A stretch of DNA of 42,266 nucleotides, from IMG/VR virus record IMGVR_UViG_3300020152_000012, positions 1-42,266 of that record. One strand, given 5' to 3'. This document shows, in pieces, positions 2,849-42,266 of this stretch. Source of the DNA: a virus. Taxonomy: Duplodnaviria; Caudoviricetes. The number at the start of each line of letters is the position of its first letter. Within the stretch, counting starts at the first letter, position 1. The notes under the pieces were generated by a model. The model was not told the DNA's origin and searched no databases. It saw nothing but the letters and a program-made list of their open reading frames with translations. Position numbers and translations under genes: made by a program.

Positions 2849-4700
2849 ATACGATTTTCCAAACTTATCTAATATTAAATATATTGGATTAGATACTGAA
2901 ACATATGACCCAAACCTAGACTCTCTTGGACCAGGAGCCATGCGTAAAGATGGTTACCTAGTAGGGATCAGTATTTATTTTAATCTTGGAGATTACAGTT
3001 TTAAGAACTACTACCCTTTGCGTCACAAAGAGGGTGGGAATATGCCTCTCTCGAAAGTAGTCAAGTGGTTGCAGAAAGAGCTGGCTAATCCCAACTTGCA
3101 TGTTATTGGAGCCAATATAATCTATGACTTAGAATGGTTATGGACTGAAGGTATTAGGGTCGCTGGACCTGTTCACGATGTTGCTATTAGGGATGCGCTC
3201 ATTGACGAGAATCAACGGAACTATGACCTTGATTCTATCGCTATACGTTGTGGACTCGAGGGGAAAGACGAAACCCTTTTAATCCAGGAATGTAAGCGTC
3301 GTGGATGGAATAAAGAAGATCAGATTAAGGGAAATCTACACCAGCTGCATTCTAGATATGTAGGCCCATATGCGGAGGCGGATGCCGTGATGGCCTACTT
3401 GTCTTATTTTATACAGCAACCATTTATTGATAGGTATGAGTTAAACCGAGTAGATAAATTAGAATCTCGGCTTACAAAGACCTTATTCAAGATGTGGGAA
3501 CGAGGTATTCCGGTCGATTTAGACCAAGCAGAAAAAAGTTCAAAAGAACTCAGGATTCTGTATGATAAGGAACTTGATAAAATTCGTGAACAAGCCGGAT
3601 TCTTTGTTGATGTCTGGTCTGGCAAACAATTAGGAGCTGCATATGATTCACTGGGACTTGGATATATTAAAACCGAAAAAGGAAACCCTTCCTTTAAAGC
3701 CGGATGGCTTGAAGTTCAAGATGACGTTTTCTCACAATCAGTGCTACGTGCTCGCCAATTCGATCGGTCAGGTAGTGTTTTTATTGACAGCAAAATCATT
3801 AAAGCATCAGTCAACGGCCGCATCCATCCGAATTTTAAACAGACTAAGACAGAAGACGGAGGAGGAACCAAATCAGGTCGTCTCTCATCATCTAATCCAA
3901 ACCTCCAGCAAGTTCCAGCGCGCAATGAGGAGCTTTCACGGATTATCCGTTCGATTTTCAAATCCGACACAGGCACATATGGGGTTTTTGACTATAGCCA
4001 GCAAGAACCTCGGGTGGGTGTGCATTTCGCTTACCTTAGAGGATTCCTTGGAGCTGCTGAAGCCGTCCGTAAGTACGTTGAAAACCCCAGAACAGATTAT
4101 CACCAGCTCGTTGCCGATATGTGTGAAAACGTTACTGGAGTTACCATTGGACGTAAAGCTGCAAAGACAATTAATCTCGGTCTTGCTTACGGTATGGGGG
4201 GAGCCAAGTTATGCCGTAGCCTCGGATTATCGACAGAATGGGTGGAAATTAATGGTACCATGGTGGAAGTTGCTGGCCCTGAAGGTAAGAAGCTCCTTGA
4301 TACATACAACAAAGCTGTACCGTTCGTAAAGCTACTATCTAAGGACGCCATGAACTTGGCTAAACGTCGAGGCTATGTTAAAACCATCTTGGGACGCAGG
4401 TGCAACTTTCCAAGAGGTTTAGGAACTCACAAAGCTGCGAATCGTATTATTCAAGGTACATCTGCGGATATGATCAAGCAAGCGATCATTAATTTAGATG
4501 ATGCCGGTTATTTGCCTTATAACACGGTTCACGACGAAGTGAATAATCCGATCAATTCTTTAGACGACTGTCGTAATATACGTGATATAATGCTTCATGC
4601 AATCGAGTTAGAAGTCCCACTTCTAGTCGATGTAGAGATTGGCGATTCTTGGGGAACTTGTAAAGAAGTTAACCTGGATATTGTCATTAGTAGGGGGTAG
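2781..4700 (+). CDS. polA: Family A DNA polymerase with 3'-5' exonuclease
   Basis: LDTET exo I, SGRLSSSNPNLQQVP, DYSQQEPR motif A, KTINLGLAYGMG motif B, VHDE motif C; start codon uncertain. Confidence 0.95.
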   Translation: MEHSSLILETTEPLLLKDEWEPKYDFPNLSNIKYIGLDTETYDPNLDSLGPGAMRKDGYLVGISIYFNLGDYSFKNYYPLRHKEGGNMPLSKVVKWLQKELANPNLHVIGANIIYDLEWLWTEGIRVAGPVHDVAIRDALIDENQRNYDLDSIAIRCGLEGKDETLLIQECKRRGWNKEDQIKGNLHQLHSRYVGPYAEADAVMAYLSYFIQQPFIDRYELNRVDKLESRLTKTLFKMWERGIPVDLDQAEKSSKELRILYDKELDKIREQAGFFVDVWSGKQLGAAYDSLGLGYIKTEKGNPSFKAGWLEVQDDVFSQSVLRARQFDRSGSVFIDSKIIKASVNGRIHPNFKQTKTEDGGGTKSGRLSSSNPNLQQVPARNEELSRIIRSIFKSDTGTYGVFDYSQQEPRVGVHFAYLRGFLGAAEAVRKYVENPRTDYHQLVADMCENVTGVTIGRKAAKTINLGLAYGMGGAKLCRSLGLSTEWVEINGTMVEVAGPEGKKLLDTYNKAVPFVKLLSKDAMNLAKRRGYVKTILGRRCNFPRGLGTHKAANRIIQGTSADMIKQAIINLDDAGYLPYNTVHDEVNNPINSLDDCRNIRDIMLHAIELEVPLLVDVEIGDSWGTCKEVNLDIVISRG

Positions 4701-4733
4701 TACTTTTAGAAAATCTTTTAAGGAGTAATAAAA

Positions 4734-5366
4734 ATGAAGAAGTCTCTTTTGGTAGTAGCAATTATATCTTTTGCAATGGCAAGTTTTCATGCTTCAGCAG
4801 GAAACAACAGCAACAACTCTGATACGTACAACAACTACGGGGATACAAATACCACGAACCGAGGCGGCGAAGGTGGTGATGCCAATTCCCTGGGTATCGG
4901 TATCGGTGTTGGTGGATCAGCTAACGCCACTGGTGGTGACGCAACCGCTATTGGCCTTGGCGGTCAAGGTGGTGATGCTGCCGCAATTGGTATTGGTGGT
5001 CAAGGTGGTAAGAGTGACGCCGATGCGAGTGCAAAGGCCGGTGCAAATGCAGGTAGTTCGAGTGGTGGTAACTCGCTTACTGTGAATGAAGGCGATTACG
5101 AAGCTCGAGCTATTCCAGTTGGCAGTTCTATCGCTGCTGGTGCAAATGGCACTTCGAAGTGTCTGAAACATTCCAGTGTTTCCGGCAATCTGTTTTTTGT
5201 TAGTGGAGCTAAAGCTTCCCATGAGCCAGATTACATGTGCTGGGCACAGGAACTGGGCGCTCCTGAAGTTGCAGTACAAATGGCTTGTAATGATAGCGGT
5301 TCATTCCGTAAAGCTTACAACCAAATCGCACGTCGTAATGGCACTGAAGAGTGTTTGAGCGAGTAA
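4734..5366 (+). CDS. Secreted Gly-rich protein with signal peptide and Cys-containing C-terminus
   Basis: MKKSLLVVAIISFAMASFHASA signal peptide, GGxGGDA repeats, four Cys, strong AAGGAG RBS. Confidence 0.75.
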   Translation: MKKSLLVVAIISFAMASFHASAGNNSNNSDTYNNYGDTNTTNRGGEGGDANSLGIGIGVGGSANATGGDATAIGLGGQGGDAAAIGIGGQGGKSDADASAKAGANAGSSSGGNSLTVNEGDYEARAIPVGSSIAAGANGTSKCLKHSSVSGNLFFVSGAKASHEPDYMCWAQELGAPEVAVQMACNDSGSFRKAYNQIARRNGTEECLSE

Positions 5367-36024: not shown

Positions 36025-36420
36025 ATGGCTAAGAACAAGGCACAAGCAGCTCAAGCAGCTGAACCAGTAATCACTGAGAAGCTGGTCAAGAATGTACTGA
36101 ACATCAAGACTCTCTTGGCATCCGCTGGCATCGAAATAACGGATGAGCAAGCAGAAGCACTGTCCAGTAAGATTGTCGTGAAGAAAGTTGGTCGCGCCAA
36201 AGCAACCTACAAGAAAGGCGAGGTTGTCTTGAAACCAGAAGACAAAGCAGCCAATCAAGTACGCGTCGCATTGGACGTGCTCGAAGATGGGATGACCATC
36301 GATCAATGGGCAGAAGCATGCAGCCTGGATACACGCTTCGTGACCAAGCAAGACCCAGCCAAAGTTCTGATGTACTATCAGAAGCAACTCATCGACCAAG
36401 GCTTGCTGGTTAAGGCTTAA
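36025..36420 (+). CDS. Basic early protein, T[RK]Q...YY family (putative winged helix)
   Basis: AAAGGAG RBS; FVTKQDPAKVLMYYQKQL. Confidence 0.8.
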   Translation: MAKNKAQAAQAAEPVITEKLVKNVLNIKTLLASAGIEITDEQAEALSSKIVVKKVGRAKATYKKGEVVLKPEDKAANQVRVALDVLEDGMTIDQWAEACSLDTRFVTKQDPAKVLMYYQKQLIDQGLLVKA

Positions 36421-37409: not shown

Positions 37410-38075
37410 ATGGGCAAGTATGCTCCAAAGCTGTATAAGGATAGAATCAATCGCAGCGTAGCACTCGAGAAACAAGAACACAAAGACGTCGTAATACGGC
37501 ACGTATTAACCTGTGTCGGGGGTAAGTGGTCCAAGTACGAGAATCTCCTAAAAGCTAAAACTATCTTGTTGCCTGAGCACCACAACATGATATATGTTAA
37601 TGCAGAAGATCTGCAACGGTGTCCAAAACAGTATTACTCCAGTGTAATGAAAGACTTCGGTCTAGATACAATGGAAGAGTTATGGGACCACCTGTGGAAC
37701 GTATCACACGATCCATATAATACGGTCCAGCGGTTTCAGGAACAGGACGCCAATCCCAGCCTGCAACCAGTCAAGAAACGTAACCGTCGTAAACTTGCTT
37801 ACAAGTTCTTCTTTGACGATACGGATGAACGTCAAATGGCTATCTATTATGGCCTTCCTCCACAAGCCAGAGCCATTATCGATATTGTGGATAATGAGTC
37901 CAAACGCATCTTGGCAGATAATCCAGGTAAGGCGGTCATCTTCGAAGAAGTCGAGCTCATGGAACTGATTGAACGCGAGAAAGATCAGCTGGATACTCGG
38001 CAATCGAGCTGGCGCATCTTCCAATACTACCGCGGCAAGCTGATACAATATAGCTTCTTGAGGTATGCACGATGA
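37410..38075 (+). CDS. Early protein with C-terminal T[RK]Q...YY domain
   Basis: LDTRQSSWRIFQYYRGKL; upstream TATAAT. Confidence 0.75.
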   Translation: MGKYAPKLYKDRINRSVALEKQEHKDVVIRHVLTCVGGKWSKYENLLKAKTILLPEHHNMIYVNAEDLQRCPKQYYSSVMKDFGLDTMEELWDHLWNVSHDPYNTVQRFQEQDANPSLQPVKKRNRRKLAYKFFFDDTDERQMAIYYGLPPQARAIIDIVDNESKRILADNPGKAVIFEEVELMELIEREKDQLDTRQSSWRIFQYYRGKLIQYSFLRYAR

Positions 38076-38169: not shown

Positions 38170-39165
38170 ATGTCAAATACTAATCAGGTAGTGCCAGTAG
38201 AGCCGACAGAGGAAATGTTGAAAGCAGCAGAAGCGAACGAACGCAATCACGCTGGCTGGCGACCCTATGACTCGATTTACAAAGCCATGTTAGCAGCCGC
38301 CCCACAGCAGCCCACTCCAGAAGGTTATATTTCTCATGACGCTTACCGTGGAGCTATGGAACGAGTTTATCTTGCTGAGAAGAGACTGAAAACAGCGGAA
38401 ACCGAATTGGCAGAACTGCGCCAAACACAGCAGCAGGATATGGAGTGTGGCATGCCAATAGCTCTAGAAATGCCAAGGGGGCTGAACAACCACACTAAGA
38501 AACTCGTGGTGCTCTTTGCTCAAGCGCTGGCGAATAAGCTGTACAAGGCCGAACTGAAATATGGCTACTCTGCAGGCTGGCTAAATGATGACTGGATGGA
38601 TGAATGCCGCCAGAAGTTGATGGAACATATCCACAAGGGAGACCCGCGGGACGTTGCAGCCTACTGCGCATTTCTCTGGTATCATAATGAATTAACTACG
38701 CCAGTACAGCAGCAGGGTGAGCCGGTGGTAGAGTTGGAGTGGATAACCATACTCAAGAAAGAGCTATTTTTAGCTAAGCACACTCGCAGCTTTACCTTTG
38801 GTCGTAATGAAGTAATTGAGTTGCTAGGTGCCTCTCCCCTCACCGCTGACGCCAGCTTTAATCAAGGGGTGGAATTGGCAGCTAAGAAAGTAGAGGATTT
38901 TGGCTGCGAGGAATGGAAGACACTTCACGCAAAGATACTTGCCCACAAGCGCCCCACCGATTCTCGCGCTGCGGAGAGTAACGACGAGAGCTTGGTGACG
39001 ATGACGCGGGATGAGCTTAATAACGCACTTGGGCTGTTGAAGGCTGCACAATGCCCATGCTGTGAAGATAAAGCTGGGGCCTACTACGACAACATGGGGA
39101 ATGTTCATCAATGCCAATGGTGCTACGAGGTTGGCGAACTCTCCCGCGCACTGGAGGGAAAGTGA
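38170..39165 (+). CDS. Mosaic Eaa/Ea22-like accessory protein
   Basis: VPVEPTEEML...YKAMLAAAP and KYGY...KGDPRDVAAYCAFLWYH modules seen in lambdoid phages. Confidence 0.7.
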   Translation: MSNTNQVVPVEPTEEMLKAAEANERNHAGWRPYDSIYKAMLAAAPQQPTPEGYISHDAYRGAMERVYLAEKRLKTAETELAELRQTQQQDMECGMPIALEMPRGLNNHTKKLVVLFAQALANKLYKAELKYGYSAGWLNDDWMDECRQKLMEHIHKGDPRDVAAYCAFLWYHNELTTPVQQQGEPVVELEWITILKKELFLAKHTRSFTFGRNEVIELLGASPLTADASFNQGVELAAKKVEDFGCEEWKTLHAKILAHKRPTDSRAAESNDESLVTMTRDELNNALGLLKAAQCPCCEDKAGAYYDNMGNVHQCQWCYEVGELSRALEGK

Positions 39166-39281
39166 GCACACGCTTCAATAAGAGTGATTATAAAGTATTG
39201 GCTATTGTAATACTACTACCCACTGTAGTTTCATTCGCCATGTACTGGATTTTTACCTTTCTTATTTGGATAGGATTATGA
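39162..39281 (+). CDS. 39-aa membrane peptide (not in ORF track)
   Basis: GGAGG RBS, GTGA overlap, hydrophobic segment. Confidence 0.55.
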   Translation: MSTRFNKSDYKVLAIVILLPTVVSFAMYWIFTFLIWIGL

Positions 39282-39445
39282 GCCCACAACAAAGAGAACA
39301 AGCCATTTTCGAATTTCAACAACGGCAGGAGGCAGAGCGTGTTTCAAGAGTGTTGCAATATTTTCAAGATAATAACTTAGTACGGGGAAAGAACAATGGA
39401 AGTAGGGAAGCCGTCGAAAGTAGTGCTGGGCAGCACGCCTCCTGA
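39278..39445 (+). CDS. 55-aa hypothetical protein (not in ORF track)
   Basis: ATGA overlap; MSPQQREQAIFEFQQRQ. Confidence 0.45.
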   Translation: MSPQQREQAIFEFQQRQEAERVSRVLQYFQDNNLVRGKNNGSREAVESSAGQHAS

Positions 39446-39614
39446 AGTCTGGTTAGTAACTGGAAACCACTTCGTCCTTATAGCCCTCTTGTCACAGACG
39501 GCTCGGATTATTACGGAGGCAGAGATGGGCGAACGCATTGACCATGCATACGCTCAAGGGCTTACAGTCGTATTTATATTTGACCCATTAGTAACTAGTG
39601 GAATATTACATTAA
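39396..39614 (+). CDS. Hypothetical protein
   Basis: GGGG RBS; operon packing. Confidence 0.55.
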   Translation: MEVGKPSKVVLGSTPPEVWLVTGNHFVLIALLSQTARIITEAEMGERIDHAYAQGLTVVFIFDPLVTSGILH

Positions 39615-39623
39615 GGAGAAATC

Positions 39624-39836
39624 ATGACTGATAGACCAGTTTCAAATAGGCAGAGCATTATTGATGCAATAAGTGCTGAAATACGTGAACAAACGTATAA
39701 GTTAAAAGATTATACGAACGGCTATAATAATCATTTAGGCCCTGAAACAGTCGATCTAGAAATAGCTTCGGCTAAGAAAGCGATTGAAGAACTTCGCCGT
39801 ATACGTAATGAGCTTGAAGATTTATTTGGACAATAA
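39624..39836 (+). CDS. Hypothetical coiled-coil protein
   Basis: TAAGGAGAAATCATG start context. Confidence 0.7.
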   Translation: MTDRPVSNRQSIIDAISAEIREQTYKLKDYTNGYNNHLGPETVDLEIASAKKAIEELRRIRNELEDLFGQ

Positions 39837-39845
39837 GGAGAAATC

Positions 39846-40148
39846 ATGTCAGACAATGTTATCACGCTTGTTCCACCAACCCAGAAGGAGAAAGCTATGT
39901 CAACCGGTTCAGAAGTAGGTCAGCCTCTTCCACCAGAAGAGTTTGCCAAAGTATTGGAGAGGTATCCTCCATTTACTTTGCATCGACCTACCCGTCCTCC
40001 ACAAGTATTCGCACGCGGGCATCGGATAGAAACTAATGATGACGGCTTGCTAGTCATCTTAGAAGTAGGTAATCCCCCTACTCGTGAAACAGATACCTTG
40101 AAGTTTGTTATCAGAGAATGGGATGAGTTAGAGTACGAAACGACATAG
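39846..40148 (+). CDS. Hypothetical protein
   Basis: TAAGGAGAAATCATG start context. Confidence 0.7.
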   Translation: MSDNVITLVPPTQKEKAMSTGSEVGQPLPPEEFAKVLERYPPFTLHRPTRPPQVFARGHRIETNDDGLLVILEVGNPPTRETDTLKFVIREWDELEYETT

Positions 40149-40158
40149 TGCGAAAAAG

Positions 40159-40198
40159 TATCATAGAGTGTGCACATAGACTCATTCTATGATATAAT
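40159..40198 (+). promoter_or_regulatory. Extended -10 promoter overlapped by a 12-bp inverted repeat
   Basis: TATCATAGAGTG-N12-CATTCTATGATA; TGATATAAT at 40190-98. Confidence 0.65.
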
Positions 40199-40244
40199 GG
40201 TCACTCGTACCAATTAAGTAGTACCTTTTTATCAACGTTAAAGA

Positions 40245-40643
40245 ATGGAGAATATCATGGCTAAGGTAAAGACCGAAACCACCGAAAATGCAGCAGCATC
40301 AGCAGTGAAGCCTGCCAAGGAAAAGAAGGCAGCTAAGCCAAAGACCCGCAAGGTTACTTCCTACCTGTTCCGCAAGGAACCACCTGAAGGCGTCAAAATC
40401 GCCCCTCAACTCGCGATTATCATCGGCCATATCAAGGCTGCTGGCAACAAGGGTATCTCCCTGGAAGATCTGGCTACGGCTTGCAAGAATGACGAGAAGT
40501 TCCAAACTCGTCAACCTGAAGCTCGTGTTATCACCTACTACACTCCTCTCCTGAAGGAACATGACATCGTCACTGTTTCCAAGGAAGAAGTTGAAGTGGC
40601 TGCTGACGCTAAGGCCGAAGAAAAGCAAGCAGAACCTGCTTAA
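40245..40643 (+). CDS. Basic Lys/Ala-rich protein, T[RK]Q...YY family (probable start 40257)
   Basis: FQTRQPEARVITYYTPLL; GGAG RBS before the second ATG. Confidence 0.8.
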   Translation: MENIMAKVKTETTENAAASAVKPAKEKKAAKPKTRKVTSYLFRKEPPEGVKIAPQLAIIIGHIKAAGNKGISLEDLATACKNDEKFQTRQPEARVITYYTPLLKEHDIVTVSKEEVEVAADAKAEEKQAEPA

Positions 40644-40710
40644 GCTCCCTGATGAGCTGGTGAGATTCCAGCGAAATATGGGTGGACTTCGGTCCCCCAT
40701 ATAGGAGTTT
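40642..40710 (+). ncRNA. Hammerhead ribozyme, type I
   Basis: Stem I AAGCUCC/GGAGUUU, CUGAUGA core, stem II GCUGG/CCAGC, GAAA, stem III UAUGGG/CCCAUA capped by GGAC-UUCG-GUCC, AUA cleavage triplet. Confidence 0.9.
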
Positions 40711-40795
40711 CCCCTGACTCCCCCGCCCCGCCAAGCGTCAACTTGGCAGTGCTCCCCCTGTGCATGGGCGGGTTTGAATTCTAGAAAGGACATTT

Positions 40796-40924
40796 ATGCA
40801 AGATAAAATGCCAAAACATAAATATATCTGGTTCTGTCCTTCCTACCTTAAAACCATCCCCTACGTTGTGAATCTTATCTGCAACAATTGGGCCCATTTC
40901 CAAAGGAATCCAAGTGGCAAATAA
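40796..40924 (+). CDS. 42-aa peptide (not in ORF track)
   Basis: AAAGGA RBS; MQDKMPKHKYIWFCPSY; overlaps the methyltransferase start. Confidence 0.5.
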   Translation: MQDKMPKHKYIWFCPSYLKTIPYVVNLICNNWAHFQRNPSGK

Positions 40925-41789
40925 ACGAGGCAAAGCAATTGATAATACCCATCTCTCCATTGACCAAGCTGAAGCACGCGGCTTTCTGCATCGTGATTAT
41001 ATTGCTCATTGCTTGCGTTGGTCTCATGTATGTCGTGAGCTTAGTCGTGGCCAGCTGTATAAAACTGCTGACATACTTGATATTGGCTGTGGCAAGGAAG
41101 TCCCTTTAGCCAAGCTGATGTACTCGTCCCGGCTTATCCCAGAAACTGGGTCCTATACCGGTATTGACGTTAACTCTCTTGAAGTGCCGGCCATGTTCCA
41201 TACAGGCAAGTTTGACATAGAGCTTATCGAACGGTCAGATGTCTGTGAATATGATTTCGGCGCATCCACCTTCCGTGTTATCACTTGCTTTGAGGTAATG
41301 GAACATGTCGAACCAGACCACACCTTCAGAATGCTCAAAACTATCAACCGCTTGCTCGAGGACGGGGGACGAGCCTATCTCAGTACTCCGTGTTACGATT
41401 TCGAAACAGGCGCAGCTGCAAATCACGTCAATGAAATGTCGTATGCCGCCTTTGGTTCCCTCATCGAATCCGCAGGTTTGGCGGTCCATAAAACGTATGG
41501 AACGTTTGCTTCTATCAAAGACTACCAGCATCTCTTGAATCCTACGCAAAGAGAGATGTTCGATAAATTGCGGGAGTACTATGACACGAATTACCTTGCC
41601 ACTATATTCGCGCCCTTATTCCCTGCGAATGCGCGTAACGCCTTATGGGTCGTAGGTAAGCAATCTGATGAATTCACCTACACTCCTAAATTTCTAGCTC
41701 CATATGAGTTAGACGACAACAAACACAGTAGTTCAGATGTGTGGATGGAGTTTATTGAAACCTTTATTCGGGAGGAAGCAAATGCGTAA
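40914..41789 (+). CDS. Class I SAM-dependent methyltransferase
   Basis: ILDIGCG motif I, YTGID, CFEVMEHV, LSTP; no DPPY/NPPY or PC DNA-MTase motif. Confidence 0.85.
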   Translation: MANKRGKAIDNTHLSIDQAEARGFLHRDYIAHCLRWSHVCRELSRGQLYKTADILDIGCGKEVPLAKLMYSSRLIPETGSYTGIDVNSLEVPAMFHTGKFDIELIERSDVCEYDFGASTFRVITCFEVMEHVEPDHTFRMLKTINRLLEDGGRAYLSTPCYDFETGAAANHVNEMSYAAFGSLIESAGLAVHKTYGTFASIKDYQHLLNPTQREMFDKLREYYDTNYLATIFAPLFPANARNALWVVGKQSDEFTYTPKFLAPYELDDNKHSSSDVWMEFIETFIREEANA

Positions 41790-42266
41790 CAACAGTACAT
41801 ACCTGTCAACAGGTGATGATTTAGAAATTCATGGAACTGAAACTGGCCGCATTTCAGGTAAAAATTTGTTAGAAGATATACAGCCAGGTAATGTTCAAGT
41901 TTTTGATGTTCCAAGCTTCATTGAAACCAGAACACATCTTCAAGATGTGATTAACTTCCATGAACATTTCGGCCTGGACAAGGAAGTAGCTGAGAAGCCT
42001 AATTTCCTGCCAGCTGACCTGGACGAAGTACGTGCCAACTTTTTGCAAGAAGAGCTGAATGAGTATTGCGCATCCATCGGTCTTCGTCTTGAATATGACG
42101 GCATCACACAAACAATAAAATGGGTTTTCAGTGGGGATTCTGAACATGTCAATCTGGAAAATGCTCTTGACGGTCTTATTGATCTGCAGTATGTGCTTCT
42201 TGGCACTGTTCACCTACACGGCTTTGCACCTATCTGGAATACTGCCTGGAACAGAGTTCAAGCGGC
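41782..42266 (+). CDS. 5' part of MazG-like NTP pyrophosphohydrolase (continues to 245)
   Basis: GGAGG RBS, ATG 41782, open frame to the contig end: DVINFHEHFG...FLQEELNEY...DGLIDLQYV. Confidence 0.85.
   Translation, partial: MRNNSTYLSTGDDLEIHGTETGRISGKNLLEDIQPGNVQVFDVPSFIETRTHLQDVINFHEHFGLDKEVAEKPNFLPADLDEVRANFLQEELNEYCASIGLRLEYDGITQTIKWVFSGDSEHVNLENALDGLIDLQYVLLGTVHLHGFAPIWNTAWNRVQA
42140..42266. repeat. Terminal direct repeat copy 2
   Basis: Identical to 1-127. Confidence 0.95.

Follow-up and report, generated by a model that had tools for sequence, protein, structure and literature searches.

A type I hammerhead ribozyme sequence overlapping a stop codon upstream of a phage methyltransferase gene

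Introduction

The questions raised by this locus are whether a hammerhead-like sequence lying between a small early gene and the nucleotide-modification genes of a phage is a genuine ribozyme and, if it is, what its cut would do to the transcript that carries it. Hammerheads that flank genes in phages and prophages were described by Perreault et al. in 2011 (PMC3088659), who proposed that they process long transcripts into gene-sized pieces; the gene-flanking prophage hammerheads of that paper cleave in vitro, and in one arrangement they also cleave in E. coli. Type II hammerheads near phage-like genes are reported to cut in vivo (PMC8782182), and two reviews treat the role of hammerheads in phages as open (PMC6155905, PMC6765202). 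Gene-flanking phage hammerheads have therefore been known, and known to be active, since 2011 (PMC3088659), and as a ribozyme the one described here is ordinary; the useful additions are a corrected stem I, a conserved adenine that would dock with loop II, and a competing hairpin.

The DNA analysed (hereafter the window) is a whole phage record of 42,266 bases with direct terminal repeats. It has an early region of small genes and a block that runs from a methyltransferase over the ends of the window to DNA polymerase A; structural genes form a block on the opposite strand. The order of the core genes is shared with the annotated phage MW202510. No tRNA genes were found in the window.

An intact hammerhead sequence at 40642-40710

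A descriptor search for hammerheads of types I-III gave one match in the 42-kb window, at 40642-40710, with stems of 7, 5 and 7 pairs. On the forward strand this stretch is an intact type I hammerhead sequence, each core element, stem and loop of which lies where the initial annotation had placed it:

40643, forward strand: conserved unpaired A, at -6 from C3 and the last base of a stop codon; putative partner of loop II
40644-40648, forward strand: 5' strand of stem I, five pairs supported by the family; 40642-43 could give two further pairs
40649-40655, forward strand: catalytic core C3-U4-G5-A6-U7-G8-A9 (CUGAUGA), the consensus core as given in PMC3088659
40656-40672, forward strand: stem II and its loop, GCUGG (40656-60) pairing with CCAGC (40668-72) around the 7-nt, T-loop-like loop UGAGAUU
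40673-40676, forward strand: core G12-A13-A14-A15.1 (GAAA)
40676-40702, forward strand: stem III, with 7 bp, a bulged U40683, 4 bp and a C(UUCG)G cap; U15.2-A16.2 replaces C-G
40703-40704, forward strand: predicted cleavage site, after A17 of the AUA triplet
40704-40708, forward strand: 3' strand of stem I, extending to 40710 if the 7-bp form is counted

The stretch contains the defining hammerhead core (C3 U4 G5 A6 N7 G8 A9, G12 A13 A14 A15.1, U16.1 and H17), and the core-adjacent pairs 10.1-11.1 (G40656-C40672), 1.1-2.1 (G40704-C40648) and 15.1-16.1 (A40676-U40702) are all present. Stems II and III are closed by loops and stem I is open, which is the type I permutation. The first pair of stem III, A40676-U40702, is followed by six more and leaves A40703 as N17, the base after which cleavage had been predicted from the start; type I hammerhead numbering supports that prediction. 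Stem I as first drawn (AAGCUCC at 40642-48 with GGAGUUU at 40704-10) does begin, as had been pointed out, within the TAA stop codon (40641-43) of the ORF at 40245-40643. The GAAAU/AUA combination had been read as a compensatory replacement, and rightly, U15.2-A16.2 being a true compensatory change that occurs in 5/44 homologues from the family described below. To call the AUA triplet unusual was an overstatement, as it recurs in 3/44 homologues and occurs naturally in the ELVd (+) hammerhead; of the four triplets compared in that hammerhead it cleaved most slowly (Carbonell et al. 2006; PMC1636495).

Dinucleotide shuffling gave a descriptor match of any kind in 14 of 400 shuffles and reached 19 pairs in none (0/400), and the isolated segment 40640-40712 folds as a hammerhead (z -3.80). 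We also built a covariance model, R1, from nine other sequences, the window not being among them; 11 of the 15 pairs in its alignment change on both sides among the nine sequences, and sliding controls are 31–44% paired. R1 gave the window ribozyme 57.4 bits and the next best match in the window 16 bits. That second match, at 17122-68 on the minus strand, lies within a structural gene and lacks G8; we rejected it as chance, and by descriptor and R1 alike the ribozyme is single-copy in this genome.

A search with the Rfam hammerhead models, suggested earlier as a check, found nothing in the window at gathering score. RF00163 (Hammerhead_1) had no match in the window up to an E-value of 10, and the best score came from RF00008 (Hammerhead_3; 17.7 bits, E 0.43, gathering cut-off 48.5), in whose match the stem III of the model is unpaired and its layout, a closed stem I and an open stem III, is absent. 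These Rfam results are what a chance arrangement or an assembly artefact would have in its favour; against either stand the shuffles, the score under an independently built model, and a DNA contig, possibly from the source sample, that covers 38845-42266 without differences. The shuffles and the R1 score already refute such a reading, the probability of which we consider negligible, and 40642-40710 is, judged by its sequence, a real, well-formed hammerhead.

A widespread subfamily with a UGARAUU loop

Core conservation and covariation in homologues had also been named as a check, and both are present, the latter in all stems. Pattern scans that fixed CCUGAUGAG, the loop UGARAUU and CGAAA hit 7 and 14 viral stretches, at least 120 metagenome stretches and 32 genome stretches. 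They gave, with the window's contig excluded, at least 131 distinct matches, of which at least 86 were type I, at least 7 were type III and at least 38 were rejected by the descriptor, some of the rejected ones looking like type I with a tiny stem III and others like chance. Nine further type I copies were found in the loci of the pattern matches listed. Excluded from the counts were L146, the window's own contig, and L253, which is identical to the window over 3029/3029 bases and whose binning with a bacterial genome we did not use as host evidence. Family counts refer to 44 representatives of less than 75% identity, drawn from the 86 listed copies with a 17-nt stem-loop II. By these scans the subfamily, characterised by its UGARAUU loop on a stem II of 5 bp, is widespread.

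To be accepted by the descriptor a match needed two pairs in stem I and three in each of stems II and III, and loop II was set by the search pattern; these parts are therefore no independent evidence, and selection bias is absent from the outer pairs only. All five pairs of stem II are kept, with compensatory changes, in 44/44 homologues. Stem I pairs 1–5 are kept in 44, 44, 42, 35 and 31 of the 44, and pairs 6–10 in 15, 17, 21, 11 and 16 of them, which is chance level. Stem I in the subfamily is probably 4–5 bp long, not 7. The inner 4–5 bp of the 7-bp stem drawn in the initial annotation stand, its outer two pairs are by the family counts probably not functional, and we rejected the 7-bp form on the pair counts in these dereplicated homologues.

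Outside this shortened stem, position -6 from C3 is an A in 40/44 homologues, mostly unpaired, and in 28/31 representatives that have no stop codon over it, against a background of 28%. A T-loop consists of a U-A closing pair across a five-base loop, with two extruded bases and a purine inserted from elsewhere, and the sequence of loop II would fit this pattern (U40661...A40665, U40666, U40667). The RF00008 consensus likewise has UGAaAu in loop II together with an 'a' in loop 1 that aligns with A40643. We take both to be a single module, in which an adenine would dock with a T-loop-like loop II; here it would be used without loop 1. Loop II was fixed by the search pattern, and the -6 A and loop II show no covariation; nine pattern-free copies keep UG at the start of loop II and an A near the loop end. 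The family analysis leads to a precise structural prediction, namely that an unpaired A six bases before the core acts with the UGARAUU loop, and R1 finds copies that the Rfam cut-offs miss here.

Genes on both sides of the ribozyme

The genes and the promoter-like site next to the ribozyme are as follows:

40171-40198, forward strand: sigma-70-type promoter-like site, TGCACA-16-TATAAT with an extended TG, 10/12 consensus
40245-40643, forward strand: upstream gene of 132 aa, or 128 aa from the ATG at 40257, which matches the starts of orthologues; TAA at 40641-43
40914-41789, forward strand: class I SAM-dependent methyltransferase (PF13489, E 1.9e-14), with 80 related loci at 46–64% identity
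41782-42266, forward strand: MazG/PRA-PH-like nucleotide pyrophosphohydrolase, running off the window end

The block continues from the window start with thymidylate kinase-like, thymidylate synthase and DNA polymerase A genes. Our promoter scan found 20 sites where 14.7 were expected, so that the scan alone is weak; the promoter proposed near 40190 is nevertheless credible, based on its 10/12 consensus with an extended TG and on a -10-like box found 52–69 nt before the orthologous start in 8/9 relatives.

For the upstream protein a winged-helix fold with disordered Lys/Ala/Glu-rich tails is predicted (mean pLDDT 73.9). Structure comparison returned winged-helix domains with Z up to 7.5 (PerR: Z 7.0, rmsd 2.4, 69 aligned), and as Z stayed under 8 we assigned the fold only. 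Neither Pfam nor PHROG has a family that matches the protein, Foldseek found nothing at E 0.001, and a single-protein search of viral contigs confirmed 0/47 candidates; an alignment search identified 13 loci. The product of this gene is predicted to be a DNA-binding winged-helix protein. Two RNA-library contigs from two studies match the gene without mismatch (40273-40645 and 40276-40474), at depths of 3.8 and 2.9, with no information on ends, strand or level and with DNA carry-over possible; they reach the upstream gene only, and the missing cover of the ribozyme body and the methyltransferase is uninformative.

The early genes at 36025-36420, 37410-38075 and 40245-40643 have a common C-terminal motif (T-R/K-Q...YYQ/R) and cross-match in relatives; they appear to be a paralogous winged-helix family across the phage group, with no Pfam or PHROG match. 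Between them, the 331-aa ORF at 38170-39165 is pieced together from short segments (38188-39140), which it shares both with other DNA-run contigs and with several unknown PHROGs, in what looks like a shuffled region.

Absence from the closest relatives

A blastn search with 40150-40950 against 50,697 phage records gave no match, a loose core pattern was found in 0/81 methyltransferase-linked loci, and R1 identified no copy in 86 loci and none in complete close genomes (0/5; positive control 5/5). R1 hits in five further records were limited to a type II hammerhead (G007) and a match of 10 bits (G009), and the descriptor gave one weak type II match in relatives, inside L008. Rfam at gathering score returned nothing in 11 related loci, and hence no other ribozyme class was seen at the orthologous spot in these loci. 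Conservation of position in related phages, another check named in the initial annotation, was accordingly not found: the ribozyme is absent from the closest syntenic relatives. Instead, by script, 7/9 syntenic relatives show a hairpin resembling a terminator in the interval from the orthologous stop to the methyltransferase, and the remaining two have hairpins with T-rich tails in their folds.

Type II hammerheads do occur in the same early region of more distant relatives, where G010 has four and G007 one. Absent from close relatives and present in distant or unrelated records, hammerheads seem to be gained and lost at gene boundaries within this phage group, and from sequence comparison the ribozyme at this locus looks like a lineage-specific gain.

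The type II copies are at 2982-5103 on the minus strand in L279 (G010) and at 7762 in L278 (G007), and the two examined in L262 lie directly after stop codons. Before the methyltransferase, L004 and L009/L010 have the same hairpin with a purine-rich, Shine-Dalgarno-like loop in the former and a pyrimidine-rich loop in the latter, as if inverted. In the unrelated record G011 (L087/L088, 24031-27252, minus strand) there are six type I copies of the subfamily, each between small genes, with a near-identical spacer and a Shine-Dalgarno sequence ~42 nt past the cut, resembling a cassette array of ribozyme-plus-RBS units.

The region downstream of the cut

Three further elements, all missed in the initial annotation, lie between the predicted cut and the methyltransferase:

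40704-40721, forward strand: 6-bp hairpin (40704-09/40716-21) in competition with stem I; on the 3' product it would form a cap at the 5' end
40722-40780, forward strand: three-way junction with a closing stem of 7 G-C-type bp (7-bp G-C stem), leading into a short U-rich tail; resembles a terminator, probably a leaky one
40796-40924, forward strand: 42-codon ORF with a Shine-Dalgarno-like AGAAAGGA at 40783-90 and an 11-nt overlap with the methyltransferase start; may not be a gene

In context the pairing 40704-09/40716-21 has a probability of ~0.99 and takes the 3' strand of stem I, leaving stem I with a probability of ~0.001; a hairpin as strong was found in 2/300 shuffles. Once the 3' end is extended by ten bases or more, the hammerhead drops out of the predicted fold. 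It is favoured only when the RNA ends near 40708-12, and in longer contexts it lies 4.3–4.6 kcal/mol above the ensemble in a nearest-neighbour model. As a family trait the hairpin of the 3' product is not significant (12/42, Wilcoxon p 0.12). A stem I probability below 0.2 in context was also obtained for 31/42 family members, and a value this low in so many members suggests that the nearest-neighbour model may lack a tertiary contact.

These folds bear on a rival reading in which the ribozyme is a passenger, neutral or only weakly active: a module recently acquired at a gene boundary, held mostly in the uncut state by the 40704-21 hairpin, cleaving slowly because of its AUA triplet, and of little consequence for the phage. 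Its absence from the 81 methyltransferase-linked loci and from all five complete close genomes fits such an origin, as do the low stem I probability in context and the slow triplet. Against it stand the intact core, stems, loop II and -6 A and the compensated change at 15.2-16.2, and most family members (31/42) share so low a predicted probability for stem I; we regard it as unlikely.

Beyond the hairpin, 40704-82 folds with a z of -3.88, 40757-72 is terminator-like in one scan and fails a stricter script, and the 42-codon ORF has neither a homologue among our searches nor a PHROG match. The 3' product had been thought to encode the methyltransferase directly; this does not hold, as 210 nt containing a structured element, a terminator-like hairpin and the 42-codon ORF lie between. 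A cut at 40704 combined with termination near 40775-80 would instead release a structured RNA of ~75 nt, the C-rich loops of which could act in trans, e.g., on Shine-Dalgarno sequences. The fold of 40704-82 and its terminator-like end are consistent with such a small RNA, and the 3' regions of relatives are also structured here and often C-rich. However, no homologue of it was found, the one of two pattern matches that was examined lies in an unrelated AT-rich context, and CTCC is not clearly enriched, with 14 observed and 8.7 expected across 13 loci and 3 against 1.0 expected in the window (p 0.07). With its weak U-tract, its failure in the stricter terminator script and no Rfam match, a small RNA made in this way appears very doubtful.

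The stop codon and the ribosome

Stop distances were counted in 39 representatives with at least 250 nt upstream, using a cut-off of 60 codons for long ORFs. In 17/39 a long ORF stops at most 12 nt before C3, compared with 4 and 4 in frame-shifted controls and with 96 of 2,480 random positions. The other stops fall on the core's own UGA (7/39), at 14–15 nt (2) or at 27 nt or more (12), and 1/39 has no long-ORF stop within 200 nt. An ORF ending on the core UGA was discarded as a trait, the 7/39 being no excess over frame-shifted controls. Among these sequences stop overlap is common in the subfamily and is not a requirement, and the controls do not separate tight packing from regulation. Most simply, the overlap is tight packing together with reuse of the stop's A; coupling to the ribosome is possible and, at present, unsupported.

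Such coupling would make the ribozyme a translation-gated switch, in which translation of the upstream gene sets the fraction that is cut. A terminating ribosome covers about a dozen bases 3' of the stop; one terminating on the TAA would cover A40643 and the 5' strand of stem I as 40704-21 emerges, and the hairpin would then lock the uncut form. In a variant built on T-loop docking, the terminating ribosome would remove the tertiary contact as well as stem I, and the hairpin would lock a one-shot switch in its uncut state. That the stop codon supplies the -6 A, that in-frame stops within 12 nt of C3 exceed both controls, and that the hammerhead is favoured only with 3' ends near 40708-12 all agree with gating. 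However, in 13/39 members no long ORF stops within 26 nt of the ribozyme, the distances are spread rather than fixed, the -6 A is kept without a stop (28/31), the competing hairpin is not family-wide, and in a dense genome every intergenic element lies close to a stop. We consider the gated switch distinctly improbable, and its docking variant equally so. If true, translation of a DNA-binding protein would decide whether its message stays joined to the nucleotide-modification operon, and this would be a natural hammerhead under ribosome-termination control, in a type I subfamily undetected by Rfam. In the literature searched, coverage of which is incomplete, we found neither a T-loop/adenine contact nor stop-codon gating in phage hammerheads. 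Ribosome coupling can now be put to the test through the corrected stem I, the conserved -6 adenine and the competing hairpin.

A probable processing site at a gene boundary

Our best reading of this locus is a gene-boundary processing site behind the winged-helix gene. It starts from what we observed, the core, the three stems, the family covariation, the position and the absence from the closest relatives, and it holds that the ribozyme probably cuts co-transcriptionally after A40703 and parts the winged-helix message from the rest, with hairpin-protected ends on both sides. Loop II, as a T-loop, would bind A40643 and so provide the contact between stem I and stem II needed for fast cleavage, which would occur in the short interval after 40710 is transcribed. 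The upstream product would be an mRNA for one gene, with two hairpins and a 2',3'-cyclic phosphate at its 3' end; the downstream product would start with a 5'-OH and fold anew as the 40704-21 hairpin, which would be an obstacle to re-ligation and to decay that depends on the 5' end. The methyltransferase operon would then be carried only by read-through past the terminator-like element at 40722-80, and by this scheme of cut and termination the ribozyme would replace the plain terminator that relatives use here. Engineered ribozyme insulators of the RiboJ kind and the RNase III sites of T7 early mRNA, in which a cut plus a hairpin makes a defined, protected end, serve as working analogies.

In favour of processing we counted the descriptor and shuffle results, the 57.4 bits under R1, the subfamily covariation, the promoter box and the terminator-like hairpins in relatives, the six copies in G011, the type II copies in G010 and G007, the exact RNA contigs over the upstream gene and the published cleavage of prophage hammerheads (PMC3088659). 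Counted against it were the 4.3–4.6 kcal/mol by which the hammerhead lies above the ensemble, the slow AUA triplet, the 3' hairpin not being a family trait, the low depth of the RNA contigs, and the absence of the ribozyme at this position from relatives, which gives no site-specific sign of selection. The locus offers a clean test case, with one ribozyme, its own promoter-like site, a known downstream operon, and close relatives that mostly have a plain terminator here.

With the hammerheads of Perreault et al. it shares a consensus core and an intergenic, co-oriented place in a phage operon, and the related phages here hold one to six copies; it differs in being single-copy and bracketing no gene, whereas the arrangements tested there were tandem (PMC3088659). 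Type III hammerheads of RF00008 have apparently the same module of loop II and adenine, but there the A lies in a closed loop 1, and here stem I is open and the A would come from the single-stranded 5' flank, that is, from the stop codon. The Schistosoma-type hammerheads of RF00163 have the same permutation, with stems II and III closed and stem I open; unlike them, this ribozyme has no extended stem I with an internal bulge, family pairing being at chance beyond 5 bp. The ELVd (+) hammerhead is similar in its natural AUA and in the importance of co-transcriptional folding, natural hammerheads appearing to be selected for co-transcriptional action (PMC1636495); it differs in being a viroid replication ribozyme and not a phage intergenic one.

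Among the other copies seen in our scans, those rejected by the descriptor in L125, L137, L148, L156, L127 and L150 have a minimal stem III, with a tandem pair in L156, and they resemble short-stem hammerheads thought to act as dimers. A large branch (L104, L106, L111, L112, L123 and ~20 similar) has a U-rich loop III, lies 4–5 nt after the stop of an ORF of 150–170 codons, and was found in many metagenome contigs as well as in archaeal genome bins.
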